From positions 525 to 64,524 of the forward strand of contig JAZQSV010000041.1 in assembly GCA_045630265.1 (NCBI GenBank): DNA of 64,000 nucleotides, read 5' to 3'. Source of the DNA: Acutalibacteraceae bacterium. GTDB taxonomy: Bacteria; Bacillota; Clostridia; Oscillospirales; Acutalibacteraceae. Position numbers and translations under genes: made by a program. Positions 9,857-45,270 of the stretch are shown here, in pieces (positions within the stretch are counted from its first letter, which is position 1; each line of letters starts with the position of its first letter). Under the pieces are notes generated by a model. The model worked only from the letters and a program-made list of their open reading frames with translations. It was not told the origin of the DNA and did no database searches.

Positions 9857-9914
9857 CGGACTTTAAATTTCGTTATATTTTGTAAAAGTAGACTAAGAAT
9901 ATTTGGAGAAAAGT

Positions 9915-10988
9915 ATGTTAGATAAATTAAAAGCCGTTGAGCAAAGATATAGTGAAATTGGTGAAAAGCTTGTTATGCCTGAGGTTATTTCGGATAACGA
10001 GCAGTATAGAAAGCTTATGAAGGAGCACAGCGCACTTACCCCCCTTGTTGAAAAGTATAGGGAGTATAAAGAGGCGGTTTCCTCTTTTGATGAGGCAAAA
10101 ACACTTTTGGATGAGGGCGGACTTGATAAGGATTTCAAGGAACTTGTAGAGGAAGAGTATAAAACCGCAAAGGAAAATATAGAGGTATTTACCGAGGAGC
10201 TTAAAATTTTACTTCTCCCCCGCGACCCTAATGACGATAGAAACGTTATTATTGAAATCCGCGGTGGTGCAGGCGGTGAGGAGGCGGCGCTTTTTGCGGC
10301 CAATCTTATGAGAATGTATACAATGTATGCAGAATCTCGCCGCTGGAAGGTAGAGATTATGAATATAAACGAGACCGAAATCGGCGGAATTAAGGAAGTA
10401 AGCTTTATGATAGAGGGCGACGGCGCCTATTCAAGGTTTAAGTACGAAAGCGGCGTGCACAGGGTTCAGCGCGTCCCCGAAACCGAGACCTCGGGCAGAA
10501 TTCATACCTCTACCGTTACCGTTGCGGTGCTTCCAGAGGCTGAAGAGGTTGAGTTTGAAATTAACCCCGCCGATTTACAGATAGATACCTACCGAGCGGG
10601 CGGTGCAGGTGGTCAGCACGTTAACAAAACCGAATCTGCCATTCGTATTACCCATATTCCTACGGGTGTTGTGGTAGAGTGTCAGGATGAGCGAAGCCAG
10701 TACAAGAACAAGGATAAGGCAATGAAGGTGCTTCGAAGCCGACTTTATGAAGCCAAGATGCGTGAGCAGAACGAGGCAATTGCCTCTGACCGCCGTGCAC
10801 AGGTTGGAACGGGTGACAGAAGCGAGAGAATTCGTACCTATAACTATCCGCAGGGTAGGGTTACCGACCACCGTATAGGCCTTACACTTTATAGGTTAGA
10901 GCAAATCCTGAACGGTGATTTGGACGAGGTTATAGATTCGCTAATCACTTATTACAGAACTGAGATGTTAAAATCCAATCAGGAGTAA
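9915..10988 (+). CDS. prfA: peptide chain release factor 1
   Basis: GGQ motif ([25 protein letters not shown]) and an RF1-type PxT loop ([13 protein letters not shown]). The ATG at 9915 follows a GGAGA SD. Confidence 0.95.
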
Positions 10989-29631: not shown

Positions 29632-29670
29632 AAAAAAGAAGCTCTCGGCCAATGCCGAGAGCTTTTGTTC
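29632..29670. terminator. bidirectional terminator; 3' end of the long pel/c-di-GMP operon
   Basis: aagctctcggc/gccgagagctt stem with A/T runs on both sides. Confidence 0.8.
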
Positions 29671-29678
29671 TATTTAAT

Positions 29679-31238
29679 TTATACAAAGGCAACTTTACTC
29701 TCTTCCTTGTGCATATACATAGCCTGGTCGGCCTTTGCAAAAACGTCCTCGTAAACTCTGTCAATTACGGGGTCAAAGAGTGCAACACCTCTTGCAACTG
29801 AAACAGCAACTTTTTTATCACACACGGTAACAAAATCTTTAGAACAGGCCTCATCCATACACCCTAAAAGGGTGTGGTAGTTAGAGTAGTCATCACCCTT
29901 TAAAATAATGGCAAATTCATCGCCACCAATACGGAAAATGGTGCTATCCTTAAATATATCGGTAAGGATTTTTGCGGTATGTATAATTAAATCATTACCA
30001 ACATCGTGGCCGTATTTGTCGTTGGTTTGCTTTAGGTTATTTATGTCGGCTACCACTACGCCAAATTTAGGGTTACCACAACAAATATCTTTGTTTAGCT
30101 CTGCAATGGCTTCGGTGTATGCTGTACTATTTTTAATGCCGGTCAGAGAATCTCTGTAAGCCAGTGCGTTAATGTAGGTGGTATATTCTTTGATTTTTGC
30201 ATAGGCGCTAGTTAAAACGCGGGAAAGGGTACCTACCTCGTCCTTAGATTCTATGGGAATTTCCTTAAGGTCGGTTTCATTTACACCAAGCGCCATTGTT
30301 TCGGCGGCGGAGGTGAGTTGCTTTAAGGGGCGTATAATTCTGTTTGTAACAACTATAGTATAAATAATCGAACAAATAAGAACAATGATAAATGCAAAAA
30401 CTATTTTGCTGAGCATAGGATGAATATCGTGTTGAATATCCTTATAATCAGCGCGAAGTTCTAAAAGCATACCGTTATTAAGCTGGGAGTTTGCCTTTGT
30501 GTGGGGATTTGCAGATTCTTCATGTTCAACCTTATTGTATTGAGTTTGACCGTCTTTGGAAATGAGCACGGCGTAGCCACTTTCGTAAACGTTAATATTC
30601 TGAATACGTTTTATCAGGTAGCTGAAGTCCATATCGAAGCCTACAACACCCACAAGCTCGTTTTGTATGTAAATCGGGGAAACGTAGGAAATAAGCTGAT
30701 TTGAATGGCCCGGGAAGTAGTAGGGCTCAAGCCACACGCCCTCCCTTGCATTTACTGCGGTATAATACCAACCAACGTTTTGGATATCATCCTTACCGAA
30801 CTGATTAAGATCTGTAAGGGGCATGTCCTTCAAAGATCCGTTTATAATCATCTTATAAAAACCGCTTGTACCGTCGGAGACGCTCGGGTCAAGGCGAATA
30901 TAAAATCCCTCTATACCGTTTGTGTTGAGAGCGATCTCAATTAGCATGCTTTCCATTTTTGCAAGGTATGTATTGCGGGCAGTTTTATTTTCAAGATCAT
31001 CTGCGTCTTTGATTTCGGTAATAGCATAATGCACCGCAATGCTTGCAGATTTTGTAATATCCCCCAATACGTCGTTAATTTGCGCAGCTTCCTTTTGGCA
31101 AACGTTGTTTAAAATTCTATCAGCATCACGGTGCATAACCTCGTGGGTCATTTCAACCGCAATAACAGATACTATTGCAGTAATAATCAGAAGTCCCGAA
31201 ATAACAACGGTTAGTATTTTAGTTTTAATTGACTTCAT
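29679..31238 (-). CDS. membrane sensor diguanylate cyclase (TM-Cache-TM-HAMP-GGDEF)
   Basis: Two TM helices flank a Cache-like periplasmic domain. HAMP segment (NRIIRPLKQLTSAAETMA). Intact RIGGDEFAIIL. No RxxD I-site 5 residues upstream (KDSTIF). Confidence 0.9.
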   Translation of the reverse strand: MKSIKTKILTVVISGLLIITAIVSVIAVEMTHEVMHRDADRILNNVCQKEAAQINDVLGDITKSASIAVHYAITEIKDADDLENKTARNTYLAKMESMLIEIALNTNGIEGFYIRLDPSVSDGTSGFYKMIINGSLKDMPLTDLNQFGKDDIQNVGWYYTAVNAREGVWLEPYYFPGHSNQLISYVSPIYIQNELVGVVGFDMDFSYLIKRIQNINVYESGYAVLISKDGQTQYNKVEHEESANPHTKANSQLNNGMLLELRADYKDIQHDIHPMLSKIVFAFIIVLICSIIYTIVVTNRIIRPLKQLTSAAETMALGVNETDLKEIPIESKDEVGTLSRVLTSAYAKIKEYTTYINALAYRDSLTGIKNSTAYTEAIAELNKDICCGNPKFGVVVADINNLKQTNDKYGHDVGNDLIIHTAKILTDIFKDSTIFRIGGDEFAIILKGDDYSNYHTLLGCMDEACSKDFVTVCDKKVAVSVARGVALFDPVIDRVYEDVFAKADQAMYMHKEESKVAFV

Positions 31239-31255: not shown

Positions 31256-33355
31256 CTACTTGGCACCGTTTATGTTGTAAACATCGGTAATGTTTCTGTA
31301 ATAGCCCTCTAAAACGGTATGTCCGCTCGAGTTTTTTACTCGCTTACCACTAAAGCGCACAAGCAAATCGCCCAAAGAGGGGTGGCACCAGGTGAACTCA
31401 ATTTGTACGGCTTTTTCCCCAAGCTTCATTTTACTTAGGCACGTTTCAACCTCAGGTAAGCAGTCGGGATGAATGTTTTTATAAAAATATTCAAAAGATT
31501 CTTTAGGTGTGCTTTGGTTAGCCACACCGGTTAGTTGCGCCATAGTTTTGTCCATATGCAGTTCGTGGCCACCACTGCCGCCAAGACGCATTATCCAAAG
31601 CCCGACACCGTTCTCATGAAGAATATCTTTTGGGTCAAAATGGACAAAGCCGATTTTTTCTTTAAGCTCAAAAATTTTATTTATAAAGGCCTGTCGCTCG
31701 GCATATTCGTTAGAAGATTTATCTATATACGCCCTTTCAATGCCCTCTACAGTGTTTGGCTTATCAAACAAATATCCCTGAATAATATCGGGGAGCAGCA
31801 ACTCTAAGGTTACCAGCTCGCGGGTGCTCTCTACTCCTTCGCAGCAGGTTCTAATGGCGTTGCCTCTAGCAAATTCTATAACGTTACTTATAAGGTTGTG
31901 GTTATAGGTTTCCTTTTCAATACCGCTTACAAAAACTCTGTCAATTTTAATTTCGTCAACGTTCATTTGTTTCAAATAACTAAGATTTGAATATCCTGTG
32001 CCAAAATCATCAATGGCAAAGTTGATGTTATAAAATTTTAGTTTTTTAATGGTATTTACCAGTCGTGGGCTGTTATGAAGCTCAACCGATTCGGTTATCT
32101 CAACCGTAAGTGCATCTCCGGGAAGATCGGCCTGAGTAACTTTTTCTATTACCCTTTCGGCAAGGTCGTTATCTTCAAATTGCAGTGCTGAGAAGTTAAC
32201 ACTTATATGTAGGTTTGGCAAGAATTGGCGCCACTTTTTACACTGTGTAAGAGCTTGCTCCAAGACCCAAAGACCTACCTTTTTAATAAGACGCGACTCT
32301 TCCAAAACGGGTATAAATTCATCGGGAAAAACTCTGCCACGTGTTTGGGAATTGTAACGTAGCAGTGCCTCCACACCGTAAATTTCATAGCTACCGGCGC
32401 GTATTTGTGGCTGGTAATAAATTTCAAAGCCTTCGAAATTATTATCTATGCTTTGCTTTAATTCCTCAAGCAGCTCTAGTGAAGAAATCTTTTTACTTAA
32501 ATCCTCTGAAGAGAAAAACTCAATGCGGTTGTTGGAAATATTTTTTGCTTTTTTAAGGGTCATATTAACCGAGTCCAAAAGCTGAGTTTCATCTAAAAAC
32601 AAGGTATTATCGATAGGCACTGCACTGGCAGTAAAGGTGCACTTTCCCGCCATGGTTTGTTTAATTGTAAGATAACGCTCCATTGCCTCTTCTTGAGACT
32701 CTACGTCTAAAACAAGGGCAAAATAATTGTGGTCTACGTGGTATGCGGCCAATACCTTTTCTAAATTCTCGCAAAACTCGGCGATTTCTTTTAAAAGGGT
32801 ATCACCCCAATCCCTACCGTGGGTAAGGTTAAGGGTAGCAAGACTGTCAATATCAAGGAACATTAAGTATCCCTTGCTTTTGCTTAAATATCCCTTAAGG
32901 TCTGTGCGAAGCTTATTTTTATTCCAAAGAGCGGTAAGGGGATTGTAAAGATGGCGCAAATTTTCTTCCGAAACACGGCCCATCATAAGGTAGGGCTTGT
33001 CCTCGCCATCACGAATAACGGTACCATGGCAGTTTATCCAAACCTTTTGGCCCTTGCGATTAATCCAACGGTAGTCCATATTGTGGGTGTCTTTTTCACC
33101 ATTTACAATCTGGTTTAAGCTATCTAGTACCGCGCCGCGGTCGGCGGGGTGAATAATTTTAAGCATATCGGGAGTGCTGTTTGTTTCACTGCCGTTTTTG
33201 CGAATGTCGTAGTTTTTATCAATGTCTCCAAAAAACCATCTTGTATCTGCCTTAATGTCCCAAACAAAAAGATAGTCGTCTGTAGAGCGGTTAATGGTTT
33301 CAATTAGTTTCAGGGTAGTTTCAAAGCCGTCATTGGTCTTTAGAAAGTTATCCAT
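31256..33355 (-). CDS. c-di-GMP phosphodiesterase (PAS - degenerate GGDEF - EAL - C-terminal PAS-like)
   Basis: EAL set is intact (YGVEALLRY, DDFGTGYSNLSYL, CCEGVES, QGYLFDKP). The GGDEF position reads VDHNYF. The ATG overlaps the DUF4956 stop (ATGGATAA). Confidence 0.9.
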   Translation of the reverse strand: MDNFLKTNDGFETTLKLIETINRSTDDYLFVWDIKADTRWFFGDIDKNYDIRKNGSETNSTPDMLKIIHPADRGAVLDSLNQIVNGEKDTHNMDYRWINRKGQKVWINCHGTVIRDGEDKPYLMMGRVSEENLRHLYNPLTALWNKNKLRTDLKGYLSKSKGYLMFLDIDSLATLNLTHGRDWGDTLLKEIAEFCENLEKVLAAYHVDHNYFALVLDVESQEEAMERYLTIKQTMAGKCTFTASAVPIDNTLFLDETQLLDSVNMTLKKAKNISNNRIEFFSSEDLSKKISSLELLEELKQSIDNNFEGFEIYYQPQIRAGSYEIYGVEALLRYNSQTRGRVFPDEFIPVLEESRLIKKVGLWVLEQALTQCKKWRQFLPNLHISVNFSALQFEDNDLAERVIEKVTQADLPGDALTVEITESVELHNSPRLVNTIKKLKFYNINFAIDDFGTGYSNLSYLKQMNVDEIKIDRVFVSGIEKETYNHNLISNVIEFARGNAIRTCCEGVESTRELVTLELLLPDIIQGYLFDKPNTVEGIERAYIDKSSNEYAERQAFINKIFELKEKIGFVHFDPKDILHENGVGLWIMRLGGSGGHELHMDKTMAQLTGVANQSTPKESFEYFYKNIHPDCLPEVETCLSKMKLGEKAVQIEFTWCHPSLGDLLVRFSGKRVKNSSGHTVLEGYYRNITDVYNINGAK

Positions 33356-34019
33356 GATACTCACCGTTATACTGGATAAGTGTAGCGTCCTCTACACCCT
33401 CCACTTCCTTTATTTTATCTAGGAAGAACATATCGTTGTTCTTGCAGTACACTTCAACCGCCATTTCGGTCTTGCCTTTACGTACTGTCTTGGATTTTAC
33501 AAAGTATTTCATTTTACCTAAGGCGCGGATTACGTTATCGCCAACCTCGTCGCCCTCATAGTGAATAACGGCGATATAAATGCGTCCCTTTTGCTGCTTG
33601 TTGTAGAAGATAATAATCATACCTATCATTACTATAGCAGTAACAGCAACAAGCAAATACATACCTGCGCCTGACGTGATACCGGTGGTTATTGCCCAGA
33701 AAAGGTAAAGTAAATCAAGCGGGTCCTTAATTGCGGTTCTGAAACGTACAATAGAAAGAGCACCAACCATACCAAGAGAAATAACAATGTTGGTACTAAT
33801 GGCCAGGGTTACCATTGCAGTAAGAACTGTCATACCCACAAGGGTAATTGCAAAACTGCGGGAATAAATAACTCCAACGAAAAATTTGCTGTAGACAAAG
33901 TAAATAACTGCGCCCATAAGCACTGCCGTTATAAGACCAAGGGCAATGCTAGTAAGACTGGCACCATCAAAGGCACCTGATTCAAGTATTGACTTTTTTA
34001 TAAAATCTTGAACGCTCAT
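33348..34019 (-). CDS. DUF4956 family membrane protein
   Basis: Multi-pass N-terminal half followed by a soluble C-terminal domain. It is the usual partner of VTC-domain genes. The ATG at 34019 follows a GGAGGGA SD. Confidence 0.7.
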   Translation of the reverse strand: MSVQDFIKKSILESGAFDGASLTSIALGLITAVLMGAVIYFVYSKFFVGVIYSRSFAITLVGMTVLTAMVTLAISTNIVISLGMVGALSIVRFRTAIKDPLDLLYLFWAITTGITSGAGMYLLVAVTAIVMIGMIIIFYNKQQKGRIYIAVIHYEGDEVGDNVIRALGKMKYFVKSKTVRKGKTEMAVEVYCKNNDMFFLDKIKEVEGVEDATLIQYNGEYHG

Positions 34020-34033
34020 AAAATTTCCCTCCA

Positions 34034-34756
34034 CTAATTTTCAAACCAATATTTAAAACTGTTCATATACTCAGTTTTTTCGTAACAAAGCACGTATTTT
34101 GAAACTGCCGTAAATTCCGAACCTCTGCCGGGGAGTATTTCTCTGACAAACTGCGGCAAAAATTCGGTAAACTTTACCTCCATAACACATTTGCCCGGCT
34201 CCAAGACCGGAAGAGTGGGAAGCGTGGGGTCAAAAATATCAAAGCTACCCACCGCCGCGCGAACGTCCATATCAAAGGTAATTCGTACCGTACCTTCGTC
34301 CAGTATCCAGGGCTCTCTGTCGTAGTCAACAATGGTGCGGGGACGCATCATATTGCAGACGCATTCGGTATAAAATTCTCTGCAAAGAGGTTGGTCGCTG
34401 TGCAGCAAAAATTCGTAGTCGCCGTCTAAAATCTTATAAACCTCATCCTTTGTAAGCGAGGCCGCTTCTTTAAAAATATAGGCGCCGAATTTTTTCTTTC
34501 TTTCAAGCTTTATACTGCTGTCGCCGCAGTCGTATATGCGAATACGGTATTTTTTTCTTCTTAAAACACCGGCATCTTTTTCCTCGTATGCCGATTTATA
34601 GCAGTCCTCAAAGTAAAGACTTCTTAGCATATATCCGCCGTTTTTGGCGTGCTTATCAAGTTTAAGAAGTGGGTCAAGCCGCTTGCAAATAAGCTGCTTT
34701 TGGGCAGTATCTATAAGATATTTCCATTCGTTTCTATAACGCTCAGGTTTCGACAT
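34034..34756 (-). CDS. VTC-domain (polyphosphate polymerase / CYTH-like tunnel) protein
   Basis: YRNEWKYLI...MLRSLYFED...YRIRIYD...MEVKF is an alternating charged beta-strand pattern typical of the VTC/TTM fold. The ATG at 34756 overlaps the cotH 3' end. Confidence 0.7.
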   Translation of the reverse strand: MSKPERYRNEWKYLIDTAQKQLICKRLDPLLKLDKHAKNGGYMLRSLYFEDCYKSAYEEKDAGVLRRKKYRIRIYDCGDSSIKLERKKKFGAYIFKEAASLTKDEVYKILDGDYEFLLHSDQPLCREFYTECVCNMMRPRTIVDYDREPWILDEGTVRITFDMDVRAAVGSFDIFDPTLPTLPVLEPGKCVMEVKFTEFLPQFVREILPGRGSEFTAVSKYVLCYEKTEYMNSFKYWFEN

Positions 34757-36509
34757 AAATGTCCTCCACAATATTACCTTCTTTGTCTACGAAGAAACTC
34801 TTTGTACCGTAAATCTTACCTCGCTCCAAAATGTAGTAGTCAAAGGCATACTGCGTTTCACCGCTCTCGTTTTTAGCAGTTACGCGCATAAAGTACTGTC
34901 CTTTTGGAAGCTTATCAAATTTTGCTATTGGAATAGAAATATCTGTCTGTTTTACTAAAACGTTTTTGAAGTTATAATCCTTTGCAAGCTCAAATGTATA
35001 TGTAATATCTTCGCCATTGAAGTCAAAGGAGGCATCCCATTCTACTGTATATCCATCATTTTTTTTCACCGGAACACCAATATAAAATGGCATCGGCTTT
35101 TTCAAAGAGGCCTTATAAAGAGCATAGTTATCGGCTATTTCCTTGGTTATACTCTTAGCCACTTTGTCATACTCAGATTTTGTAAGGCGGGTATAGGTTA
35201 AATCTTTGCCCTGATATACGTAAGGTTTTAAAAGCTTTGAGTAGGCATCAACGTAGGAGTTAACAAGCTCGTCGCTCATAAGGTTCTTTAAATCTTCTAC
35301 TGCCTTGTCAAGTTCTTTAAGATAGGTTTCAGATTTAAGAAGGCGCTGGAATAGTACGTTACCCCAATAGTTACTAACGCCGCGTTCCCAATTAAGATAG
35401 TCGTTTCTTCCTAAAATTTTGTACTCCTCAGCGAGGAAGGAACCGTCGATATCCCAAGGGAGAATATACCATCTGTCCATGTTTTGTGGGCTGTAGATAT
35501 AGAAGTTGCGGTTTTGGGTATCAATATTACCTATAAGCAGGTTGAATGCCATCCAGTAGGCAATATTTTCTATATCTAAATGCTCTTCTACAATCTCCTC
35601 TATAGGAATGGAGAAATCGTTTATTTTTTCGAGCAGGTTAATAAGCTTTGTGTGGTCGTCGTCGCCCTTTATTTCCAAAATTTCCTCGAACTTTTTAAGG
35701 TCGTATTTGGGATCCTCTTTTAAAACAATAATATCTTCGTAGCGGTAAAATTCGCACACGTTGATTTTGTAAAGATGTCCTCTGTTGTCAAGACCGTGGG
35801 CCTTAAGAGCGGTTTTGTTAAGCTGTTCTACCTGCGTGTAAATTCCGTAGTCCTGAAATTTGCCGCTGCCGCCCGCCGTTGTATCCTTAACGTATAGGTG
35901 AACAAAGGTGGTGCGAAGACTAAGTAGCTGTTCGATATTTGTAAGCAAATCAAAGCCAAGTTTGTTTCTAAAGCGAAGACCGTCGCCCTGATGCTTATTA
36001 AGGGCAAGGGTGGTTTGTCCGCGCCAGTCGCCTTTATTCTCTTTAATGCTTATCTTGTAGTTTTTCTGGGGATTTCTACTGGAGGACTGACCCCTTATTT
36101 GCACCGTGCAGTTTGGGGCCATCTGTCCGTAGCCAAGCTCACCGGGCATAAGACCCTTTTCATCGCCTACCTGTAAAAGACCTGCAACCTTATATCGGTC
36201 TACACCCATTCGGTCGTAGTCATATGCAGAATAGGTATTTATCTCCTCCCAGGTGTGGTTGGTGCCCTCACCCTCGTTACCCGTAGAAACGGTAAGATAC
36301 ATAGTAACAATTTCAGTGTTACTGTATTGTGAGTATAGTAGATTCTTGTCCCTTATATGTATACTTTCTTCGGTTTCGAAGTCCTCTGCATCCAGCTTGG
36401 TGCCCAGGTTGGTATCAATTGCTGTGTTAATATTACTATCACTGCAACCGCAAACCGAAAGAAGCATTAAAAGGGCAAGTGCCAAAGACAAAAAAGCTTT
36501 AAGTTTCAT
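34743..36509 (-). CDS. cotH: CotH-family atypical kinase-fold protein, lipoprotein-type signal peptide, C-terminal Ig/FN3-like domain
   Basis: MKLKAFLSLALALLMLLSVCGC signal. CotH core (LALNKHQGDGLRFRNKLGFDL, NFYIYSPQNMDRWYILPWDIDGSF). Confidence 0.8.
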   Translation of the reverse strand: MKLKAFLSLALALLMLLSVCGCSDSNINTAIDTNLGTKLDAEDFETEESIHIRDKNLLYSQYSNTEIVTMYLTVSTGNEGEGTNHTWEEINTYSAYDYDRMGVDRYKVAGLLQVGDEKGLMPGELGYGQMAPNCTVQIRGQSSSRNPQKNYKISIKENKGDWRGQTTLALNKHQGDGLRFRNKLGFDLLTNIEQLLSLRTTFVHLYVKDTTAGGSGKFQDYGIYTQVEQLNKTALKAHGLDNRGHLYKINVCEFYRYEDIIVLKEDPKYDLKKFEEILEIKGDDDHTKLINLLEKINDFSIPIEEIVEEHLDIENIAYWMAFNLLIGNIDTQNRNFYIYSPQNMDRWYILPWDIDGSFLAEEYKILGRNDYLNWERGVSNYWGNVLFQRLLKSETYLKELDKAVEDLKNLMSDELVNSYVDAYSKLLKPYVYQGKDLTYTRLTKSEYDKVAKSITKEIADNYALYKASLKKPMPFYIGVPVKKNDGYTVEWDASFDFNGEDITYTFELAKDYNFKNVLVKQTDISIPIAKFDKLPKGQYFMRVTAKNESGETQYAFDYYILERGKIYGTKSFFVDKEGNIVEDIYVET

Positions 36510-36512
36510 TCT

Positions 36513-37964
36513 TTATCTCCTCTCAAACCGTTCTTCTAAAAATACCCCAAGTCGTGTGAAAAAGCCACTGCGGTCCTCTGCCACAAGGGGCTGTACAGAC
36601 AATATGTAAAATGGAAGCCGCTTGGTAAAATAGTCAAGCCGCAGTGCGGCAATTATTACAAAAACAAGTGCTGCAATTAAAAATCCAAAGCCGTAATAGA
36701 CGTATGAAAAGAAAAGGGAGAATATTGTAAGCACCGTTCCTAAAGTGGCAAAAACAAAGGTTGCAAGCAAGGCTCCCTTATAATCTGTAAAGTAAAGAAG
36801 AATAAGCATAAGCATATTGCCTATAGCGTAAAGCCCGTAGGCAACGCAAAGTGTTCTGAAATATCCGCGCATAATCTCGTTAAAGCCAAGGGGAAGTAAA
36901 TCCAACAAAAATCCGCCAAGTGCAATACAGGCCGCGGTAAAAAGCAGTTGTTTAAGCGAGGTGTAGAAAATTTCGGTTTTAAGGGTTCCCAGCATTTCTT
37001 TTTCGGACTGCTTAATATCACCAATAGTGCCTTTATCGTTATAAAGACTGTAGTGGTTGCGGTATTTGGGATAGAAATTAACCTCTACTGAAACAACAAA
37101 ATTAACAGTGGTCATAAGCGCCGTCATAAAGGCAATAAGTGCGGGAACGTCGTGCCATGGTGCGCCGTAGAACAGACCCTTAACGTGCACCCTTATATCG
37201 GAACACCATATTATAACAAGGTGAGAGAACATTCCAATATTCATAAAAAGTCCCGAAAGGGCAAGGGGTAAAAACTCATCCAGCCATCTAAGGAAGGTAA
37301 AGGCGCCAAGTTTTGTGTGGGGGAAGTAGCGATGAAGCAAAATTACGTTCCAGATAAGCATTATTCCATAACCGACACTAACTGAAAACAAAAGTGATTC
37401 AATGGTAGGGAACCTTAGCCACAAAAGCAATGTGCCAAGTAGTATAGAAACAGCAACCGAGGTTAAAAAGGAAAGGAAAATTCCCTTATAGTCCTTAATT
37501 GCAGTTAAAAAGCTCATGGCGTTCCAAACAATTATAAGCTCGCCAAAAAGTACAAAGCACAAAACTCCCTGAATCAGTGTTGCGCCAGAAAAAACCAAGA
37601 ATAAGCCGTAGAGGGGGCTTCCAACTGCCAACATTATAACGGTAGAGCCCCAAAATGCGGGTAAAACAGCACCGTTTTGCTCTTCAAAAAGCATATCGGC
37701 AATATAGCGGGTTACCACCATAGAGAAAAACGAAGAAACGGTAACCGAAGCCAAAAGTGTGTAGGTTATCATACAAATAAGCAACTCGCGATTATGTGTA
37801 TCTATTGCAAAAAAACTGCAAATAGCCATAATACCAAGTAGCAGTAAAACACCAAGCAACATAGGGCCTGCACATATAATTGTTGCATAACCGTAGGCCT
37901 TGGTTGTGTTAAGCACGCCCTTTTTTTGGAAAAGCTTTTTTAGTTCAAAGCCGATTCCTGCCAA
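36513..37964 (-). CDS. pelG: Pel exopolysaccharide export/polymerisation membrane protein PelG
   Basis: The N-terminus MAGIGFELKKLFQKKGVL is the PelG hallmark. About 12 TM helices. The TTG start lies inside the pelF 3' end. Confidence 0.85.
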   Translation of the reverse strand: MAGIGFELKKLFQKKGVLNTTKAYGYATIICAGPMLLGVLLLLGIMAICSFFAIDTHNRELLICMITYTLLASVTVSSFFSMVVTRYIADMLFEEQNGAVLPAFWGSTVIMLAVGSPLYGLFLVFSGATLIQGVLCFVLFGELIIVWNAMSFLTAIKDYKGIFLSFLTSVAVSILLGTLLLWLRFPTIESLLFSVSVGYGIMLIWNVILLHRYFPHTKLGAFTFLRWLDEFLPLALSGLFMNIGMFSHLVIIWCSDIRVHVKGLFYGAPWHDVPALIAFMTALMTTVNFVVSVEVNFYPKYRNHYSLYNDKGTIGDIKQSEKEMLGTLKTEIFYTSLKQLLFTAACIALGGFLLDLLPLGFNEIMRGYFRTLCVAYGLYAIGNMLMLILLYFTDYKGALLATFVFATLGTVLTIFSLFFSYVYYGFGFLIAALVFVIIAALRLDYFTKRLPFYILSVQPLVAEDRSGFFTRLGVFLEERFERR

Positions 37965-39370
37965 CTGTCTTCCACCTCTTTATACAAATCTCTGTATTTT
38001 GTAAGCATAATGTTGTATCTAAAATGTTCATAGGTGCGCCTTTGTCCTACTTCTCCCATTTTAAGGCGAAGCTCCCTAGATTCACAAAGGGTTTCCATAG
38101 CGTCTGCAAGTAGGTCGCGTTGCATAGGGGGAACAAAGTAGCCCGCCTTACCCAAGGTATCACCCGGTTTACCGTTTAAAAGCTCACTGCAGCAACCCAC
38201 GTCGGTTGTAACACAGGGGCGCCTTGCTGCAAAGGACTCCAAAACCGATAAGGGCTGTCCTTCAGAAATACTGGTAAGTAGCGTAAAATCAAGCTTTTCA
38301 AAATATTCTATTATATTAACTCGGCCGGTAAAGATAATTTTATCGTTAAGCCCAAGCTGATTTACAAGCGCGTAGCATTCCTCGGCATATTCCTCGTCAT
38401 CAACGCCGCCCATTATATGAAGTCGAACGTTATCCATACGGCAGGAAAGCTCAAAGAAGGCATAAATCATAGTTTTTATGTCCTTAATTGGAGCGAGTCG
38501 CACAACGGCGCCAATGTCTACAATGCCGTCTTCTTCCTTTAGCGGTATATTGCAAAGTTTTTCGTAGCTTATGCCGTTTTCAATAACCCTGCATTTATCT
38601 TTGTCGCAACCCATGTCAATCTGTGTTTGCATTGCTCTTGTAAAAAGGGAGGTTACCCTAAAGGCCCTTGCATAAATCAAATCGGAAAGCATATAGAAAA
38701 AGTCTATCCAATGGGGCTTAAAGGCGCGCGCCACCCATTTTGCACGAATAATTTCTTCCTCGCGTTCACGTGTATAAATACCATGTTCGGTAAGAAGTAA
38801 TGGCTTTTTATATATGTAGGCTGCCATAGAAGCAAGCAGTCCGCCGTAGCCGGTGCAAATGGCGTGGTAGCAGTCGGCCGTTGGAATTTCGGTACCCATA
38901 AGGTACAAAACGGGAAGTAGTCGAGAACGAACCGAGTGAAATGCATCGGAAAATGCAATAAAGGGGAAATCTGCTTTACAGGTTTCGGTTAGTGTCTCTA
39001 AAAAGCTTTGGCTTTTAAGGTAGGACATGGGGTTAATTTTTTTAACTTGATATAACTCAAAAAGAAGGTTCCAGTTAGGGCTGTTGGAGGATACAAGACA
39101 TCTGTGCGCCTCGGTTTCTGCCTCGGAAAAGTTGTGTTCAAAAACGCCGCTATCTTTAACTCTTAGGGCATCGTCCAAAAACACCTGTTTAACCTCTACA
39201 ACGTTTTCTGGAAGCTTGTAAACAAACTTATCTTTATCTTCGGCCTTAGCACCAATAACCCAAAGCACAAATTCGTGCTCGGGCATTTCGGTTATGTATT
39301 GGTGCATCCAGGTTGAAACGCCGCCGTTAATGTAAGGGTAGCAACCTTCCAAAATCAAACAAATTCTCAC
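37940..39370 (-). CDS. pelF: Pel glycosyltransferase PelF (DUF3492 + GT4)
   Basis: MRICLILEGCYPYINGGVSTWMHQYI N-terminus, and a GT4 C-terminus (LTSISEGQPLSVLESFAARRPCVTTDVG). Confidence 0.85.
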   Translation of the reverse strand: MRICLILEGCYPYINGGVSTWMHQYITEMPEHEFVLWVIGAKAEDKDKFVYKLPENVVEVKQVFLDDALRVKDSGVFEHNFSEAETEAHRCLVSSNSPNWNLLFELYQVKKINPMSYLKSQSFLETLTETCKADFPFIAFSDAFHSVRSRLLPVLYLMGTEIPTADCYHAICTGYGGLLASMAAYIYKKPLLLTEHGIYTREREEEIIRAKWVARAFKPHWIDFFYMLSDLIYARAFRVTSLFTRAMQTQIDMGCDKDKCRVIENGISYEKLCNIPLKEEDGIVDIGAVVRLAPIKDIKTMIYAFFELSCRMDNVRLHIMGGVDDEEYAEECYALVNQLGLNDKIIFTGRVNIIEYFEKLDFTLLTSISEGQPLSVLESFAARRPCVTTDVGCCSELLNGKPGDTLGKAGYFVPPMQRDLLADAMETLCESRELRLKMGEVGQRRTYEHFRYNIMLTKYRDLYKEVEDSWQESALN

Positions 39371-39379: not shown

Positions 39380-41227
39380 CTATTTAAAGGAAACCGTAAC
39401 AGTATCCTTATTAGCTTCAAGCAAATATAAATTTCCCGTAATGTGGGTAAGCTTTCCGCCCAGAACCTTATCGGGCTTATTTTCATTAAAGCGCACCATA
39501 AACTGCGCGTTGTCGTAAAAGTTTTCTATGGTAAGAACCATTTTATCGTCGTAAACCGTGGTTTTGGGCGCAACCGCGGCAAAGCGCTGAACGGCGTTGG
39601 ACATTTCAGAGCCGGTAAAGTTGCGTAGTTCGGGGGCCGAGGTGTAAAGCCAGCTAAGATAAGAGTCAAACCTTTTTGTAAGTTCTCTCCAACCAAGCTC
39701 TGCGCCACGATCGGGGTCAAGCGCATCGTCAGGGTGGGTAAAGTGGTTGTTTATATAGTGGAAATTAAGTTCAGAAAATGCGCCCATTGTCATAAAGTCG
39801 TCAATGTCGCAGCCTGAAATAATACGGGGCTGGTCAACGATGCCGTTTTCGTCAACCTCGTACTCTTGCAGTAGGGCAAAATCCAAAACGTCATCGGGAA
39901 GATAAATACCCGAAAGGGTTTTAATCTGGTCAAATTCAGTTATAAGCATCTCCCTGCCCTCATCTGAAATAAGGTTTGAAGGGGGAACGTAAACCGACAT
40001 TTCTACACCGGGAAAAAGCTCGTCGCAAAAATCGGTGAGATGGGTAAAGGCCTTTACCATAGCGGTGTAGCTCTCCCAAGTTTTATAATCAAAAATACCT
40101 TTATAATCTTTATTATTCAGACAAAGGGGTTGGTGGTTATAACCGTGGTAACCAATTTCTCCGCCCTTTCTAAGAAGCATATTGCCAAAGGTCATAAAGG
40201 TAGCGGTATCGGGCTGGGCGTCGGTTGTTCCGTCTATATTGTCATCGTAGCTTTCTATTGCAAGACCGGTATACTTAATGCCGTAGCGATCTGAAAAATT
40301 CATCATACTCGGCCACCAAATATTGATGTAAAAATCTCTGATGGTGGTGCCGTAGTCGCGGGTTATGTACTCACTGTTTCCGCTTGGAATCTGCGACGGA
40401 AAGTCGTCAAGATAAAAGGTAGAACCGTTTATAACAGGATAAACGTAAACCTTTTTCATAAGACTGATTGATGCGGCGAAGAAGCCCCTGTAGGCCTTAT
40501 CACACATGCCAAAGTTATCTACAACGAACATACCGTCACCATACACAGCTTTCCAAATTACGGGTATGCCGGTTTGGTTTTTTATGCGGGCGTATACTGT
40601 AGTCTTTCCTGGCATCAACTGAACCGTTCTTGCCGATTCATAAAAGTCAGTAACAACGTAGGATTTTCCTGCACCCACCATAAAGTCCTTTTCTACGTAT
40701 ATCTCATCTACGGCGGAGTAGCCAAAGCTTGCCGCAATACCAAGGCGGTTTTCAATGGCCGAGGAATAGGCGTTTTTATCAAGGGTAAGGGGAAAAAGCA
40801 CGCTTCCGCCCTCATAAACCCAATTACAAATATCAATAATTTTTTCTCCCACAAAGGAAAGGTCGGAGAAAAGAATAATAACGTTTTTAAAGCCCGAAAG
40901 CTCGGGTATCTGTTCATCTTTAAGGTTTACGTACTTAGTGCCAACCTTCATATCGGTTAAAATAACCTCAAACTGTTCCAGGGCGAAAACAGATGGCTCG
41001 TTTTCGCTGCTATAAAGCAGTAACGTATCGGATTCAAGGGAACTACAGGCTTTTGCTTTAGTTACTATGTTCTCTTTTGGGAGAGGTTCTAAGCTTTGTG
41101 CGGAATAATTAAACCTTACACCGCTAAGCTCAATAAAAAGGATAGCCGCAATCAGGGAGAATACCATAGCAATGGCCAAAACTCCCTTAAATCGGAAATT
41201 ATTAAATTTTTCCCTCAGCTTTCCCAA
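39380..41227 (-). CDS. pelA: DUF2194-type membrane-anchored polysaccharide deacetylase (PelA deacetylase-domain equivalent)
   Basis: N-terminal TM helix. CE4-like metal motifs (FYLDDFP and GYHGYNH). It occupies the position between pelE and pelF. Confidence 0.7.
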   Translation of the reverse strand: MGKLREKFNNFRFKGVLAIAMVFSLIAAILFIELSGVRFNYSAQSLEPLPKENIVTKAKACSSLESDTLLLYSSENEPSVFALEQFEVILTDMKVGTKYVNLKDEQIPELSGFKNVIILFSDLSFVGEKIIDICNWVYEGGSVLFPLTLDKNAYSSAIENRLGIAASFGYSAVDEIYVEKDFMVGAGKSYVVTDFYESARTVQLMPGKTTVYARIKNQTGIPVIWKAVYGDGMFVVDNFGMCDKAYRGFFAASISLMKKVYVYPVINGSTFYLDDFPSQIPSGNSEYITRDYGTTIRDFYINIWWPSMMNFSDRYGIKYTGLAIESYDDNIDGTTDAQPDTATFMTFGNMLLRKGGEIGYHGYNHQPLCLNNKDYKGIFDYKTWESYTAMVKAFTHLTDFCDELFPGVEMSVYVPPSNLISDEGREMLITEFDQIKTLSGIYLPDDVLDFALLQEYEVDENGIVDQPRIISGCDIDDFMTMGAFSELNFHYINNHFTHPDDALDPDRGAELGWRELTKRFDSYLSWLYTSAPELRNFTGSEMSNAVQRFAAVAPKTTVYDDKMVLTIENFYDNAQFMVRFNENKPDKVLGGKLTHITGNLYLLEANKDTVTVSFK

Positions 41228-42096
41228 AATGCAAAAACCTCCTTTGCTCTTGAAGAAAGGAAAATGTGACTGTCTTCTATTTCCTTCATCAGTTTCTTTA
41301 TATCATCACCTCTGCCAAGTGAGGCAAGGTATTTCAGTTTAAGTAAAAAATAATCTTCGGTTTTTGGGTAGGCCTTTTCCATTTGCCTTAGCGTTTCGCC
41401 CGCAAGGGTAAAGTTTTTGCGAATAAGCTCATTCTCTACCGTACGAACATAGTCGTGTATATTTGCCGTTTCGGAAAGCTTTTTAAGCATTAGTGAAGAA
41501 AAAAGCTCGCGATTTAGCACCTCTACCTGACCTTGCATAAGATTTTGTGAAAGGCAGTTCCATAAAAAGTCGGTATATTTTTCCAAAACAAGTGGGTTGT
41601 CGGGTTCAGCGGCATACTGCCTTTCAAGGTCTTGCAGCATATAGTCATTTTCCTTGGAAATTTCCACCATTGCCGTTACGGCGTAGTGAACAACCTCGGT
41701 ATCCTCGTTGTTGCCCGCCTTTTGTAAAAATTCAATATATTCCTTGGGGTTATCGTTAAGCACATCCATAATAATTGTGCGTCTTTCTTTGGCTGAGTTT
41801 ACAACAAGTGCCTCTTCAATAGGTACAGTGGAAGCGGCAACCTTTTTCTCATCTATGGTAATACCCTTATAAAGCTCCGATTCAAGTTTTAGTTTTTCTA
41901 CTCCAACTTCAATTCCGTCGTCGGCTTCAAACCAAATTTGAAAGTGTAGTATAAGTAGTAATATGGCACCCCAAAAAGGAATGAATAGTGCCACAAAGAA
42001 CATATACTTATGGACCTTTAAAATATTAAATTTAATGCCTAAAAATATTAGCAGACACAAAATTAAATGTACCGCAAGTACTATTAAGTATATCAT
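41215..42096 (-). CDS. pelE: PelE-like protein (two N-terminal TM helices plus helical repeat domain)
   Basis: The topology and operon position match PelE. The sequence itself is weakly diagnostic. Confidence 0.55.
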   Translation of the reverse strand: MIYLIVLAVHLILCLLIFLGIKFNILKVHKYMFFVALFIPFWGAILLLILHFQIWFEADDGIEVGVEKLKLESELYKGITIDEKKVAASTVPIEEALVVNSAKERRTIIMDVLNDNPKEYIEFLQKAGNNEDTEVVHYAVTAMVEISKENDYMLQDLERQYAAEPDNPLVLEKYTDFLWNCLSQNLMQGQVEVLNRELFSSLMLKKLSETANIHDYVRTVENELIRKNFTLAGETLRQMEKAYPKTEDYFLLKLKYLASLGRGDDIKKLMKEIEDSHIFLSSRAKEVFAFWES

Positions 42097-42121: not shown

Positions 42122-42413
42122 GGGTATCTTGCTCTACCTTAGGGTAGAACGACATACCCGAACCCGCCTCAAGGTGGCATATTTTGGCGTTTTTCATCCA
42201 TTTAATTCTTGTAATGCGAAAGCATTACCACGCCTTAAATGAACAAAAATCACACAAAATCTCCTCACTTTGAGGTCGAAGATTTTTAAAATAGAGGATT
42301 TTTGTTCTATAAAGGCAAAAACGCAGTAAATCCTTTCGGATTTACGAGTATTTTAACAAAGATAGAGCGAAAATCCACATTTTAAAAACGTGTTCGGATA
42401 TATCGCTCTACCC
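42122..42413 (-). repeat. pair of related imperfect palindromes bounding the pelD-pelE spacer; their arms also form a 22-bp long-range helix
   Basis: Left palindrome at 42122-42159 and right palindrome at 42363-42410. Positions 42142-42163 are complementary to 42392-42413, with 3 mismatches that are all G-U on the sense (minus) RNA. Confidence 0.6.
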
Positions 42414-45194
42414 TAAGTTCACATCCAAATCCAGCCCCTCAAAGCGTGGTAAAATATATTGAAGGTCAGCTTCAGAAGCTTGTGAGAGAAGTAAAATAAG
42501 TTCACCCTCATTTTCGGTGGCACCTATAATATCATTAGCACGAATCTTTGGGGCAAGAATGGTATCGAGTTCCTCTAAAGAGTGGCCCTTGCCGTTAATT
42601 TTAAGCAGCAAGAAGGTTGAAACCTTTTTCTCCGAAAGGGCCTTGAAGTTTTTAAGACATTCATCGAACGGTTCTTTGCGCATAATGTGGGTGTTTTCAA
42701 TGTACTGCTTTTCGTAAACTGCCTGACTATAGTCAAATGCGCGGAGAAGCGACATCTGAACAAGGTCTCGCAAAATTTTAAGAAGGTTTACGTAGTAAAG
42801 AGAGCGCTGGTCAATTCCCGCATGCCACAAAAAGATAAGCATTACAAGCCTTTCTCCGCGATAAACGCCCGCAGCATACATAGGAAGATCATGCCTTAAA
42901 TCTATGTTGCGCCAAATTTCACCCTTTTTAAGTGTGTCTATAACCTCTTTGTAGGTTTCGGTGGATATAGAACGGGAAACACCTTCGATGATGTCGCGGG
43001 AGGCGACCTCAAGTCGTCCAAAAGCACTTTTATCGTTTACCGAATAAACGGTAATGCTTTTGTTTTCAAGCACCTCCTCAAAGGTTTCCATAATTCTTAA
43101 ATACAAAAGCTGCGGCTCTACTGTATCAAGTCGGCGGGTAATATCAAAAATCTTACCAAAGCTATCCTTAGAGCCAATAATCTGTTTTTTTAGGTCCCTT
43201 TTCTCGCGGTAGGTGTCTTCATAAATCTCGCGTGTGAATACAAGCTTATCCTCAAGAAGGCGGTTTTGTTCGGATACAAACTGAATTGTATCATCCTTTC
43301 TTAGCTTTACATAACCACAAAGTGCGCCAACCAAAGCAAAGAATACAAATGCAAGCCAGTTGGTGGGCTCGTAAAAAATGGTCATTAAATTGGTACCCGA
43401 TATAACCTTGGCCACCAGCCAAGAAAGACTGCTAAGCCCTGCTGCCATAAGGCCAAAGTTAAGTCCGTGTATAGTGGCCATTATAACTATGTAGGCCATT
43501 CTAAAATCAACAACCGAGAATATTACGGTTGAGCCGGTTAAATGCAACAAAAGCTCGGTTACAAGGAAAAGAACAATAAGTTCGGTGAATTTAATGAAAA
43601 GACTGTGCTTTTCAATCCAGCTTTTTATCTTGTCCAACAGAGTTTCATTATGCTCGTTTTTAAGGGATACAAATCTTTCATACTCTTCGGGCAGGTCATC
43701 TAAAAGAGAAATTTTGGCAAACCAACCGTACTCGTTGCGAAGCGCACGGTTAGTAAGGGTAATTTCACTCGGTTCATTATCCCCAACAAAGTCTATTTTA
43801 GCGTCCTTTCTAAGGGAAACAAGTGCATTTGCAAAATCCGAAAAACGAATATTAAACTCGTCGCCAACCGTTAAAATGCCGCCGCCGCTTTTCCAGTTGT
43901 CGGTAAGGCGTATTAAAAGTTCGGAAAGGTCAGAAGGAGAAATAAAATGTATTTTTTCTTCCTTGGGACGCTTTATGGTTATGGTTTTACCGTCGTACAC
44001 CTTTTGGAAGATTTTATATAAAAAGTCGTTTTTATACCTTGCTGAATAAAGGTAAGGAATCTGCACAATCTTAACGTCAAGGGTTTTATTTTTTGAGTAG
44101 AAGTGGCAAAGTTTTTCCTTTGCGGCCGACAAAATAGCTCGGTCTGATTGCTCAGTAAAGGATGAATCAAGGGAGGAAAGGTAAACAACCTTAGCGTGTT
44201 TTTGAAGCTCAGCCGAATATTTTAAAACCTCTCTTAACTCTTCAGCATCATTTTTTTCGGTCGTATGGAAGGTGAGCTCGCTGGAGAAAAATACAATAAG
44301 ATCAAAATCGTAAGTTTCAAGCACTGCGCGGATAGAGGGCTTTTTAATACGGAAAAGCTTAATCCTGTCCTTAGAGCCAAGCTCGGTATTGCCTATTACC
44401 ATAACCTTGCTGTCGGGGAAGGTGGAGTCAATAAAATCCTTGGTTATGTACTGCGTGTTACCAATAAAAAGCACACGTTCGGGTACAAATCCGGCACTAT
44501 TAGCAGTAACCGCTCTTTGTTTTGTGAGAATTTCTCTAAGGGCTACAAGGTCGCTGTGGTTTACAACGTGAAGTAAAGCGTCAACAAGAATTTCGTTGAA
44601 GACACCGCACATGCCACTTGAAATCATCTGAACGGCAACGTCTTGTGAAAAGGCTTCCTTATAGCTGCGGTTACTGGTTAAAGCGTCGTAAGAGTCGGCA
44701 AGGGATACCACTTGCGCCGAAAGAGGAATATCGTCCCCTTTCAGTCCGTCGGGGTAGCCGGTGCCGTCGTACCTTTCGTGGTGGGCACGTGTAATCTCGG
44801 CTGCATATTGTTTAATTTTGGGATTCAGTCCTGAGAAATCAAGCTCGTTCACAAGCTTCTCACCGAAAACTGAATGCTTTTTAACAATGTCGTACTCTAC
44901 TGGAGAAAGTCGTCCGGGAAAATCTAAAATGCTTTTGGGAATTTTGGATTTTCCTATATCGTGCAGGGAAGAGGCAATAGATATAGCGTCAATGTCTTCG
45001 TCACTAAGGTCATATTTATCATGATTCTGGAGCTCTTTTAAGATTAACTGGGTAAGCATACGAACATGGTAAATATGAAAGCCGTTTTCCCCATTAAGAT
45101 TTTTAGGGATGGTGCTATCGGTGAAAACCTCTATTTTTACGGTCGCAGCATCGCCATTTTGCTCTAAAACCAAAAGGGAGTTTTGCTCTGCCAT
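42408..45194 (-). CDS. pelD: PelD-like c-di-GMP receptor fused to an N-terminal HD-GYP domain (HD-GYP - degenerate SDR - 4 TM - GAF - degenerate GGDEF)
   Basis: HD-GYP motifs SLHDIGKSKIP and HHERYDGTGYPDGL. The SDR-like region lacks GxxGxxG (FIGNTQYIT). A TM block is followed by a C-terminal GAF/GGDEF-like region with no GGDEF motif. Confidence 0.75.
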   Translation of the reverse strand: MAEQNSLLVLEQNGDAATVKIEVFTDSTIPKNLNGENGFHIYHVRMLTQLILKELQNHDKYDLSDEDIDAISIASSLHDIGKSKIPKSILDFPGRLSPVEYDIVKKHSVFGEKLVNELDFSGLNPKIKQYAAEITRAHHERYDGTGYPDGLKGDDIPLSAQVVSLADSYDALTSNRSYKEAFSQDVAVQMISSGMCGVFNEILVDALLHVVNHSDLVALREILTKQRAVTANSAGFVPERVLFIGNTQYITKDFIDSTFPDSKVMVIGNTELGSKDRIKLFRIKKPSIRAVLETYDFDLIVFFSSELTFHTTEKNDAEELREVLKYSAELQKHAKVVYLSSLDSSFTEQSDRAILSAAKEKLCHFYSKNKTLDVKIVQIPYLYSARYKNDFLYKIFQKVYDGKTITIKRPKEEKIHFISPSDLSELLIRLTDNWKSGGGILTVGDEFNIRFSDFANALVSLRKDAKIDFVGDNEPSEITLTNRALRNEYGWFAKISLLDDLPEEYERFVSLKNEHNETLLDKIKSWIEKHSLFIKFTELIVLFLVTELLLHLTGSTVIFSVVDFRMAYIVIMATIHGLNFGLMAAGLSSLSWLVAKVISGTNLMTIFYEPTNWLAFVFFALVGALCGYVKLRKDDTIQFVSEQNRLLEDKLVFTREIYEDTYREKRDLKKQIIGSKDSFGKIFDITRRLDTVEPQLLYLRIMETFEEVLENKSITVYSVNDKSAFGRLEVASRDIIEGVSRSISTETYKEVIDTLKKGEIWRNIDLRHDLPMYAAGVYRGERLVMLIFLWHAGIDQRSLYYVNLLKILRDLVQMSLLRAFDYSQAVYEKQYIENTHIMRKEPFDECLKNFKALSEKKVSTFLLLKINGKGHSLEELDTILAPKIRANDIIGATENEGELILLLSQASEADLQYILPRFEGLDLDVNLG

Positions 45195-45241: not shown

Positions 45242-45270
45242 ATTATAATATATATAAATTTCTTTGTCAA
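45242..45270 (-). promoter_or_regulatory. exact consensus sigma-A promoter, TTGACA-17-TATAAT, upstream of pelD
   Basis: Minus-strand TTGACA at 45270-45265 and TATAAT at 45247-45242, about 40 nt upstream of the pelD ATG. Confidence 0.7.

Follow-up and report, generated by a model that had tools for sequence, protein, structure and literature searches.

A CotH, VTC and DUF4956 gene trio within a Pel operon of an Acutalibacteraceae bacterium: an accessory module with a Vtc4-like enzyme and a predicted surface kinase

Results

The present analysis concerns three adjacent genes, encoding a CotH-family atypical kinase, a VTC-domain protein and a DUF4956 membrane protein, in a window of 64,000 nucleotides (nt) from an Acutalibacteraceae bacterium (GenBank assembly GCA_045630265.1, contig JAZQSV010000041.1, positions 525 to 64,524 of the forward strand), whose nearest relatives in homologue searches were metagenome-assembled genomes of gut Clostridia. 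All three open reading frames (ORFs) are present on the minus strand at 33348-36509, where a preliminary description of the window had placed them, and they are contiguous, co-directional and directly downstream of pelG. They comprise cotH (34743..36509; 588 amino acids (aa); a predicted lipoprotein atypical kinase from its ORF and Pfam assignment), the gene for the VTC-domain protein (34034..34756; 240 aa; a cytoplasmic Vtc4-like triphosphate-tunnel enzyme by Pfam, a Vtc4 profile match, residue mapping, and AlphaFold2 (AF2) and Foldseek), and the gene for the DUF4956 membrane protein (33348..34019; 223 aa; Pfam, alignment and AF2). The real start of the VTC gene is the ATG at 34756, the 245-aa ORF beginning at an upstream TTG, and that of the DUF4956 gene is the ATG at 34019; identical starts are called in public metagenome contigs that encode identical proteins. 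A ribosome-binding site precedes each of the three genes, and their packing, in which cotH and the VTC gene overlap by 14 nt, the VTC and DUF4956 genes are 14 nt apart and the DUF4956 gene overlaps its downstream neighbor by 8 nt, fits co-translation.

The trio is the middle of a ten-gene operon of ~15.6 kb, because a promoter consensus stands before pelD and the single strong terminator on the minus strand comes behind the final gene. The order, all on the minus strand, is pelD-E-A(DA)-F-G, cotH, VTC and DUF4956, and then two cyclic di-GMP (c-di-GMP) genes. Upstream of pelD lies a sigma-70-type promoter-like site (TTGACA-17-TATAAT, 45242..45270, minus strand) with 12/12 matches, which is a consensus match only, and the total count of promoter-like sites in the region was not above shuffle expectation; at the operon end, a sequence scan located an intrinsic-terminator-like hairpin with a T-run (29639..29664, minus strand). 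No riboswitch was found before the operon in Rfam. The PelD-like gene (42408..45194; 928 aa) was assigned from its position and from phmmer matches to PelD ORFs of related loci, and its product has an N-terminal HD-GYP-type HD domain (HD_5, E 6.5e-26) and no epimerase domain by Pfam; the PelD of one related locus (L087) has an Epimerase domain. There follow a PelE-like gene (41215..42096; 293 aa, no Pfam family), recognized by its position between pelD and pelA(DA) and kept in related loci, a PelA deacetylase-like gene of the DUF2194 family (39380..41227; PF09960, E 2.3e-147), the pelF glycosyltransferase gene (37940..39370; NCBIfam PelF equivalog, 318 bits against a cut-off of 100) and pelG (36513..37964; PF16933, E 1.4e-130), and the earlier placement of genes for a Pel-like polymer immediately upstream is borne out by PelG, PelF and DUF2194 on the same strand. 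Downstream of the trio, a gene for a PAS-GGDEF-EAL protein (31256..33355), identified by its domains and with its start in the 8-nt overlap with the DUF4956 stop, precedes the operon's last gene, for a Cache-HAMP-GGDEF protein (29679..31238; domain search). With an HD-GYP-type PelD and two downstream GGDEF/EAL genes, the operon is heavily wired to c-di-GMP.

The VTC domain (PF09359; E 7.7e-29, 101 bits against a cut-off of 23) is the sole domain of its 240-aa protein, which has no hydrophobic segment (19-residue Kyte-Doolittle maximum of 1.0) and is therefore cytoplasmic, in accordance with the preliminary description. A search of the PDB with the single sequence missed Vtc4 and a profile was needed; that built from 83 diverse bacterial homologues matched yeast Vtc4 with an E of 3e-11. 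When the window protein was aligned with hmmalign, 15 of the 17 Vtc4 tunnel or catalytic residues examined were identical: Vtc4 R196, K200, R264, R266 and E279 correspond to R8, K12, R71, R73 and E85, Vtc4 K281, K294, Y359, R361 and R373 to K87, K96, Y145, R147 and R158, and Vtc4 D377, E426, K428, S457 and K458 to D162, E193, K195, S219 and K220. The two non-identical positions are a conservative replacement of S375 by T160 and a replacement of T198 by E10, which is an invariant Glu in the bacterial proteins. The fifteen shared residues are invariant or nearly so across the 83 bacterial proteins, and the tunnel residues K12, R71, R73, K87, K96, Y145, R147, R158, E193, K195, S219 and K220 are each either invariant within the family or conserved to at least 90%. 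Vtc4 R264, R266 and E426, the residues mutated to inactivate the yeast complex, are all kept in the window protein. Absence of the tunnel residues can be discounted, because fifteen Vtc4 residues are identical and family-conserved. The AF2 model (predicted local distance difference test (pLDDT) 96.2, predicted template modeling score (pTM) 0.91) has Vtc4 as its best PDB matches in Foldseek (3g3r and 3g3q, E ~1e-14, TMq 0.66-0.69), and these outrank YgiF and the CYTH enzymes; the model thus agrees with a beta-barrel tunnel fold. The VTC protein is a Vtc4-type triphosphate-tunnel enzyme with its catalytic set intact.

About one fifth of the 150 best VTC representatives (P0254, P0275, P0387 and 28 others; also the entries L101 2059-3348 and L102 163-1491) have an N-terminal, proline-rich extension of ~140-390 residues. 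Among 31 such long representatives, the extensions contained no recurrent Pfam domain and no CotH-VTC fusion was present. In three loci with an extended VTC protein, a protein of ~240 aa is encoded one or two genes after DUF4956, and in two of these it is metallo-beta-lactamase-like by a faint Pfam match.

The product of the third gene matches DUF4956 (PF16316) with an E of 1.5e-9 and 38.3 bits against a cut-off of 30.6. Its membrane region (aa 22-142; 33594..33956, minus strand) has five predicted helices in a low-confidence AF2 model and includes the invariant loop VRFRTAIKD (R92, R94, K98 and D102). The core SLGMVGALSIVRFRTAIKDxxD...FWAI..GI..GAG is invariant between loci with only ~30% overall identity, and the SLGMVGALSIVRFRTAIKD...FWAI motif, likewise invariant, is peculiar to DUF4956. 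An ACT-like domain (aa 146-217; 33369..33584, minus strand) follows, modeled by AF2 with a pLDDT of ~75 as a beta-alpha-beta-beta-alpha-beta fold, and together with the predicted helices it supports the multi-pass protein with a soluble C-terminal domain that had been envisaged. The alignment is shallow and the membrane model poor because homologue searches were saturated by close relatives. Foldseek matched only the C-terminal domain of the model, to ACT domains of RelA-type enzymes, to NikR and to the C-domain of MgtC (2lqj, TMt 0.60), and hhalign gave a weak match in register to Escherichia coli YhiD (probability 35%, E 4e-4, residues 74-139). MgtC gave no Pfam match to the protein even at an E of 10, and some DUF4956 orthologues are named YhiD by the Joint Genome Institute (JGI). 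Under the positive-inside rule, the basic loop (R92, R94 and K98) and the ACT-like domain would face the cytoplasm, where the VTC protein sits.

CotH has a kinase domain at aa 136-463 of its 588 residues (PF08757, E 1.9e-71; 35121..36104, minus strand), which aligns with Bacillus cereus CotH (5jd9) with an E of 2.5e-7 and places the catalytic residues at D330, N335 and D353. D330 and D353 are the counterparts of B. subtilis D228 and D251, the catalytic and the metal-binding Asp, mutation of which inactivates the kinase (PMC7821199); the 23-residue spacing is preserved, and both Asp are kept in eight diverse CotH partners. The N-terminus MKLKAFLSLALALLMLLSVCGC is present as previously quoted and fits a lipobox with Cys22, in a signal peptide read from the sequence at aa 1-22 (LLSVCGC; 36444..36509, minus strand). 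In every complete Pel-linked CotH orthologue the signal peptide ends with L-[SAT]-[GA]-C, and at the N-terminus of the non-Pel partners stands either a lipobox or a membrane anchor, apart from the Pseudobutyrivibrio CotH with its ambiguous N-terminus. An extracytoplasmic location, as first proposed from the lipoprotein-type signal, is therefore a conserved property, and the window CotH is predicted to be a surface-anchored lipoprotein outside the membrane. As for the Ig/FN3-like C-terminal module that had also been proposed (aa ~470-588; 34746..35102, minus strand), the FN3 domain reported for the Streptococcus intermedius orthologue agrees with it, whereas the matches here are weak (Ig_J, E 0.017; BT_4661, E 0.085), and the assignment stands only as probable.

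The signal peptides of CotH in Collinsella (MTDRMMSRRRLFEAAAGALLLSGC, L015 ~8152-9951) and Faecalibacterium (PRRRVLGLG...LCAGC, L013 ~7915-9921) have a twin-arginine-like motif and the protein may therefore be exported folded in these genera; the window signal looks Sec-type. Several loci that are intact in other respects (L002 5299-7063, L029, L058, L061, L068, L069 and L099) have cotH broken into two ORFs by frameshifts, pseudogene formation or assembly errors, with the VTC and DUF4956 genes intact.

In loci sampled by similarity to the VTC protein, which are phylogenetically redundant so that the counts are not frequencies, DUF4956 lies directly downstream of VTC in all 92 assessable cases and CotH is present in 94 of 95, an arrangement far beyond chance and one that answers the earlier question of co-occurrence in the affirmative. 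The genome scan covered the 80 closest loci, mostly from Collinsella, and diversity was drawn from contig look-ups and plasmids. All 80, which come from Clostridia, Blautia, Roseburia, Faecalibacterium, Bulleidia and many Collinsella, read pelD-E-A-F-G-cotH-VTC-DUF4956. Taken locus by locus, the identities of VTC and DUF4956 to the window proteins were 74/70, 69/64, 36/40, 38/45, 36/33, 35/36, 33/35 and 29/28%, by which measure the two diverge in step; CotH identity is 22-25% over partial lengths in three non-Pel loci, and 33% over 90 residues only in Enterococcus.

The trio also occurs outside Pel (L091, NZ_CP043029; L092, NZ_CP059541; L095; L096; P0387), contrary to a previous report whose authors could not find it outside pel loci (mBio 2025, PMC12345266). 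VTC-DUF4956 adjacency is kept in all VTC-containing contexts that were examined, namely Pel, a locus with a PgaC/IcaA-like glycosyltransferase of the poly-N-acetylglucosamine (PNAG) type, one other exopolysaccharide cluster, two-component-system loci and housekeeping genes. A Pseudobutyrivibrio plasmid has the trio within a different polysaccharide cluster, and on a Planococcus plasmid VTC, DUF4956 and CotH come in this order ahead of genes for a HEAT-repeat protein and for a PgaC/IcaA-like synthase that scores below the family cut-off. The order VTC, DUF4956, CotH recurs in Nonomuraea, and in Enterococcus faecalis an OmpR-type two-component system stands between DUF4956 and CotH. In Paenibacillus, CotH is replaced by a Cthe_2159-family carbohydrate-binding lipoprotein (L094 9455-11353), and in Acetoanaerobium the VTC-DUF4956 pair is flanked by a two-component system and a phospholipase D (PLD)-like protein of cardiolipin-synthase type (L104 6750-8306); in both loci the two-component system that adjoins the pair is OmpR-type. 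When the two-component systems near VTC-DUF4956 were compared with the PhoPR type, their top matches included PhoB, PhoR and PnpS, all far below family cut-offs. Housekeeping neighbors surround the trio or the pair on other contigs, and on two contigs the flank available for the pair lacks a CotH gene. In the P0387 locus (JGI 3300072015), a Ppx-GppA exopolyphosphatase-family gene lies divergently beside genes for CotH (1042 aa), VTC (620 aa) and DUF4956, a single instance that could be coincidence. In nearly all loci the third partner has an N-terminal export signal or anchor, even where Cthe_2159 takes the place of CotH. The conserved unit is VTC plus DUF4956, its exported partner is interchangeable, and the module is not confined to Pel loci. 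Near the trio on the Pseudobutyrivibrio plasmid lies a phosphodiester glycosidase gene, and the distant DUF4956 gene of Sinorhizobium pSymA also has a phosphodiester glycosidase gene (NAGPA family) on one side, with a gene for a caspase-domain protein on the other.

Several neighbors of the operon were also recorded. A purine riboswitch aptamer (RF00167, 27763-27860, plus strand; 55 bits, gathering score 37) precedes a gene for a 567-aa protein with a uridine-kinase/PRK-family domain (27919-29622). A protein of the Endonuclease I family (26022-27569, minus strand), encoded ~2 kb from the Pel operon end, has the look of a surface nuclease, with a signal peptide, a C-terminal membrane anchor and a long low-complexity linker rich in Asn and Thr. 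Just past the pelD promoter region lie genes for a MatE transporter (45429-46805, plus strand) and a polysaccharide deacetylase (PF01522; 46866-47903, minus strand).

Discussion

The preliminary description held that the three bacterial partners had not been characterized as a system, which proved incorrect. In streptococci and clostridia, cotH, a polyphosphate polymerase gene, DUF4956 and DUF4832 were found contiguous with pelDEA(DA)FG, with a diguanylate cyclase/phosphodiesterase (DGC/PDE) gene in place of DUF4832 in bifidobacteria, and the trio was named as Pel accessory genes (Whitfield et al., 2020; PMC7112168). In S. intermedius, SIR_1594 was identified as a secreted CotH with an FN3 domain and SIR_1593 as Vtc4-like (bioRxiv 2024; mBio 2025, PMC12345266), SIR_1592 was described as an MgtC-like membrane domain with an ACT domain, and each gene was deleted singly (mBio 2025, PMC12345266). 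Deletion of CotH lowered both Pel and aggregation, and deletion of DUF4956 raised Pel and lowered aggregation; the authors suggested that any polyphosphate would stay cytoplasmic (PMC12345266). In the literature searched, no model was found in which polyphosphate is exported to feed CotH. New here are the VTC tunnel residues and model, the conservation of the CotH aspartates and lipobox, the adjacency and co-divergence of DUF4956, and the occurrence of the trio outside Pel.

Taken together, the evidence firmly supports a functional module made of a Vtc4-like enzyme, a dedicated membrane partner and a link to a surface-exposed kinase. The best overall explanation, to which we would give an even chance of being right, is a Gram-positive Pel accessory module in which a polyphosphate-making VTC protein sits on DUF4956 and CotH acts at the surface. 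In such a module, the VTC protein, docked on DUF4956 at the inner face of the membrane, would make polyphosphate from ATP, an activity that we hold slightly more likely than not. DUF4956 would either anchor and regulate the enzyme or pass its product outward, and CotH would act on a surface or matrix substrate, whether protein or polysaccharide, to tune Pel-dependent aggregation. Export of polyphosphate, for which the analogy with the yeast VTC complex and the exported partner are the grounds, appears doubtful, and the invariant R92/R94/K98 loop is suggestive only as a hint of a pore. The weakest step of the scheme is that polyphosphate would serve CotH as its phosphoryl donor, an idea that is purely conjectural and very unlikely. 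The same low estimate applies to the full form of the proposal, in which VTC-DUF4956 would be a minimal synthase-translocase, its membrane part unrelated to the eukaryotic pore, and a surface CotH would use polyphosphate as a donor or transferable group in an ATP-free compartment, its targets being matrix proteins or a cationic exopolysaccharide, for instance Pel.

A number of observations weigh against this reading. The membrane part of the DUF4956 model, with its five helices, has a pLDDT of only ~50; with these helices and the ACT-like domain the modeled protein looks like MgtC/YhiD, whose family is known for making regulatory contacts and not for transport. The membrane pore domains of yeast VTC gave neither a sequence nor a fold match, and because nothing in DUF4956 resembles that pore, any analogy between the two would be convergent and not one of descent. 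In none of the 150 best VTC representatives was VTC fused to DUF4956, and distant DUF4956 genes occur without a VTC neighbor in Hymenobacter (L103 7929-8597) and on Sinorhizobium pSymA (L105 5962-6651). A polymerase cannot be told by sequence alone from a triphosphatase or polyphosphatase, and E10 of the VTC protein resembles the ExExK motif of CYTH enzymes. To our knowledge, no enzyme of the protein-kinase fold uses polyphosphate. In S. intermedius, no change was reported upon deletion of VTC (PMC12345266), and this result together with the MgtC-like character of DUF4956 weakens the case for export. Further, a linear chain from VTC through DUF4956 to CotH fits poorly, because the VTC deletion had no reported effect and the CotH and DUF4956 deletions shift Pel in opposite directions.

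These observations lend themselves to an alternate scenario, unlikely in our estimation, in which DUF4956 is an MgtC-like regulator or anchor and not a conduit, the VTC protein makes or consumes cytoplasmic polyphosphate, and the polyphosphate pool or an ACT-domain signal tunes the output of the Pel synthase or the balance of phosphate and energy, CotH working independently outside the cell with another donor such as extracellular ATP. The MgtC-like architecture, the weak YhiD match and the ligand-binding type of the ACT-like domain in DUF4956 would be expected of such a regulator, as would the rise of Pel upon DUF4956 deletion and its fall upon CotH deletion, the presence of DUF4956 without VTC in some Gram-negative bacteria and the VTC-DUF4956 pair without CotH in some loci. 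However, the relationship to MgtC is itself weak, given the low hhalign probability and the missing Pfam match, and this scenario leaves unexplained why a cytoplasmic enzyme pair should have an exported partner in 94 of 95 loci across unrelated contexts.

Pel and PNAG are cationic polymers, and extracellular DNA is an anionic cross-linking partner for Pel in Pseudomonas. By this precedent, exported polyphosphate could itself be the product, cross-linking cationic, partly de-N-acetylated hexosamine polymers, with CotH not simply borrowing a donor but attaching, trimming or organizing phosphate, or polyphosphate itself, on matrix proteins or the polysaccharide; we consider this improbable. It would suit the location of the trio in Pel loci, beside a PgaC/IcaA-like family 2 glycosyltransferase (GT2) synthase that scores below the family cut-off, in the equivalent C. 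perfringens locus NELoc-2, which also has a polysaccharide deacetylase, and in a third exopolysaccharide cluster on the Pseudobutyrivibrio plasmid, and it would suit the aggregation defects of the CotH and DUF4956 mutants (PMC12345266). However, the trio or the VTC-DUF4956 pair is also found with no exopolysaccharide genes nearby, VTC deletion gave no aggregation phenotype (PMC12345266), and the export step would again be borrowed by analogy from yeast. A last suggestion, that the VTC protein is a tunnel hydrolase or signaling enzyme (a triphosphatase, polyphosphatase or nucleotide-modifying enzyme) and the trio has no role in polyphosphate synthesis, draws on the extra invariant E10, on the literature searched, in which no biochemical study of a bacterial VTC member was found, and on the tunnel enzymes as a group, which share a fold and basic tunnel yet differ widely in reaction (PMC4641920), but it is very improbable, given that Vtc4, Vtc2 and Vtc3 are the nearest relatives in both sequence and structure, with the CYTH hydrolases ranking behind them, and that R264, R266 and E426 are all conserved.

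The polyphosphate-making accessory module thus remains the preferred reading, and its interest lies in its spread and in its possible consequences. The trio is widespread in gut Firmicutes and Actinobacteria and also appears in a C. perfringens pathogenicity locus, and two of its genes measurably affect Pel-dependent aggregation in the pathogen S. intermedius. If VTC-DUF4956 makes polyphosphate, it would be a bacterial polyphosphate synthase unrelated to the PPK1 and PPK2 kinases, and if the polymer is exported, this would explain how an extracellular kinase is fueled and would add polyphosphate to the components of the biofilm matrix.

Comparison with known systems

Bacillus CotH, a spore-coat Ser/Thr kinase (PDB 5JD9 and 5JDA), shares with the window CotH its Pfam family and its catalytic and metal-binding Asp. 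In contrast to that protein, the window CotH is a predicted lipoprotein encoded in an exopolysaccharide operon and has an extra C-terminal module; it is not a mother-cell protein acting on CotB and CotG, and there is no cotB-cotG-cotH cluster at the window locus. DUF4956 is likened to the MgtC/SapB/YhiD proteins by its similar size, by ~five helices after which comes a cytoplasmic ACT-like domain, and by a weak YhiD motif match, but differs in having no Pfam MgtC match (E up to 10) and an hhalign probability of 35%. The yeast VTC complex (Vtc4/Vtc3/Vtc1; PDB 3G3Q, 7YTJ and 8I6V) resembles the window pair in its tunnel fold, in 15 of 17 Vtc4 residues and in the consistent pairing of the enzyme with a membrane protein. 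However, the window VTC protein has neither an SPX domain nor a fused three-helix DUF202 membrane domain, its partner has five helices and an ACT-like domain with no similarity to the pore, and polyphosphate synthesis and translocation are only putative here.

The C. perfringens pathogenicity locus NELoc-2 encodes a VTC protein, a membrane protein of 222-226 aa annotated as tubulin/FtsZ-like, CotH, a 685-aa protein, a HEAT-repeat protein and a GT2 synthase (Lepp et al., 2010; PMC2879425). Its layout is shared with the Planococcus plasmid locus, and from its size, its position and this layout, rather than from a comparison of sequences, we infer that the membrane protein is DUF4956. NELoc-2 differs from the window in having no Pel genes and in its order of VTC, membrane protein and CotH.

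The closest counterpart is the S. intermedius set SIR_1594/SIR_1593/SIR_1592, in which the same three families occur in the same order and on the same strand directly after pelG, and which shares an exported CotH with a C-terminal beta-sandwich module, a cytoplasmic VTC protein and a multi-pass DUF4956 with an ACT-like domain. Compared with the streptococcal and clostridial Pel sets, the window has no DUF4832 glycoside hydrolase in the operon and has as its fourth gene the PAS-GGDEF-EAL gene, followed by the Cache-GGDEF gene; because the former overlaps the DUF4956 stop, the window is a DGC/PDE variant, as in bifidobacteria (PMC7112168). In published trio-containing loci, an N-terminal epimerase or short-chain dehydrogenase/reductase (SDR)-like domain of PelD correlates with the accessory genes, whereas the N-terminus of the window PelD is an HD-GYP-type HD domain and has no recognizable epimerase domain. 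The gene set is thus already known, and the window is one further member of it, a DGC/PDE variant with an HD-GYP-type PelD.

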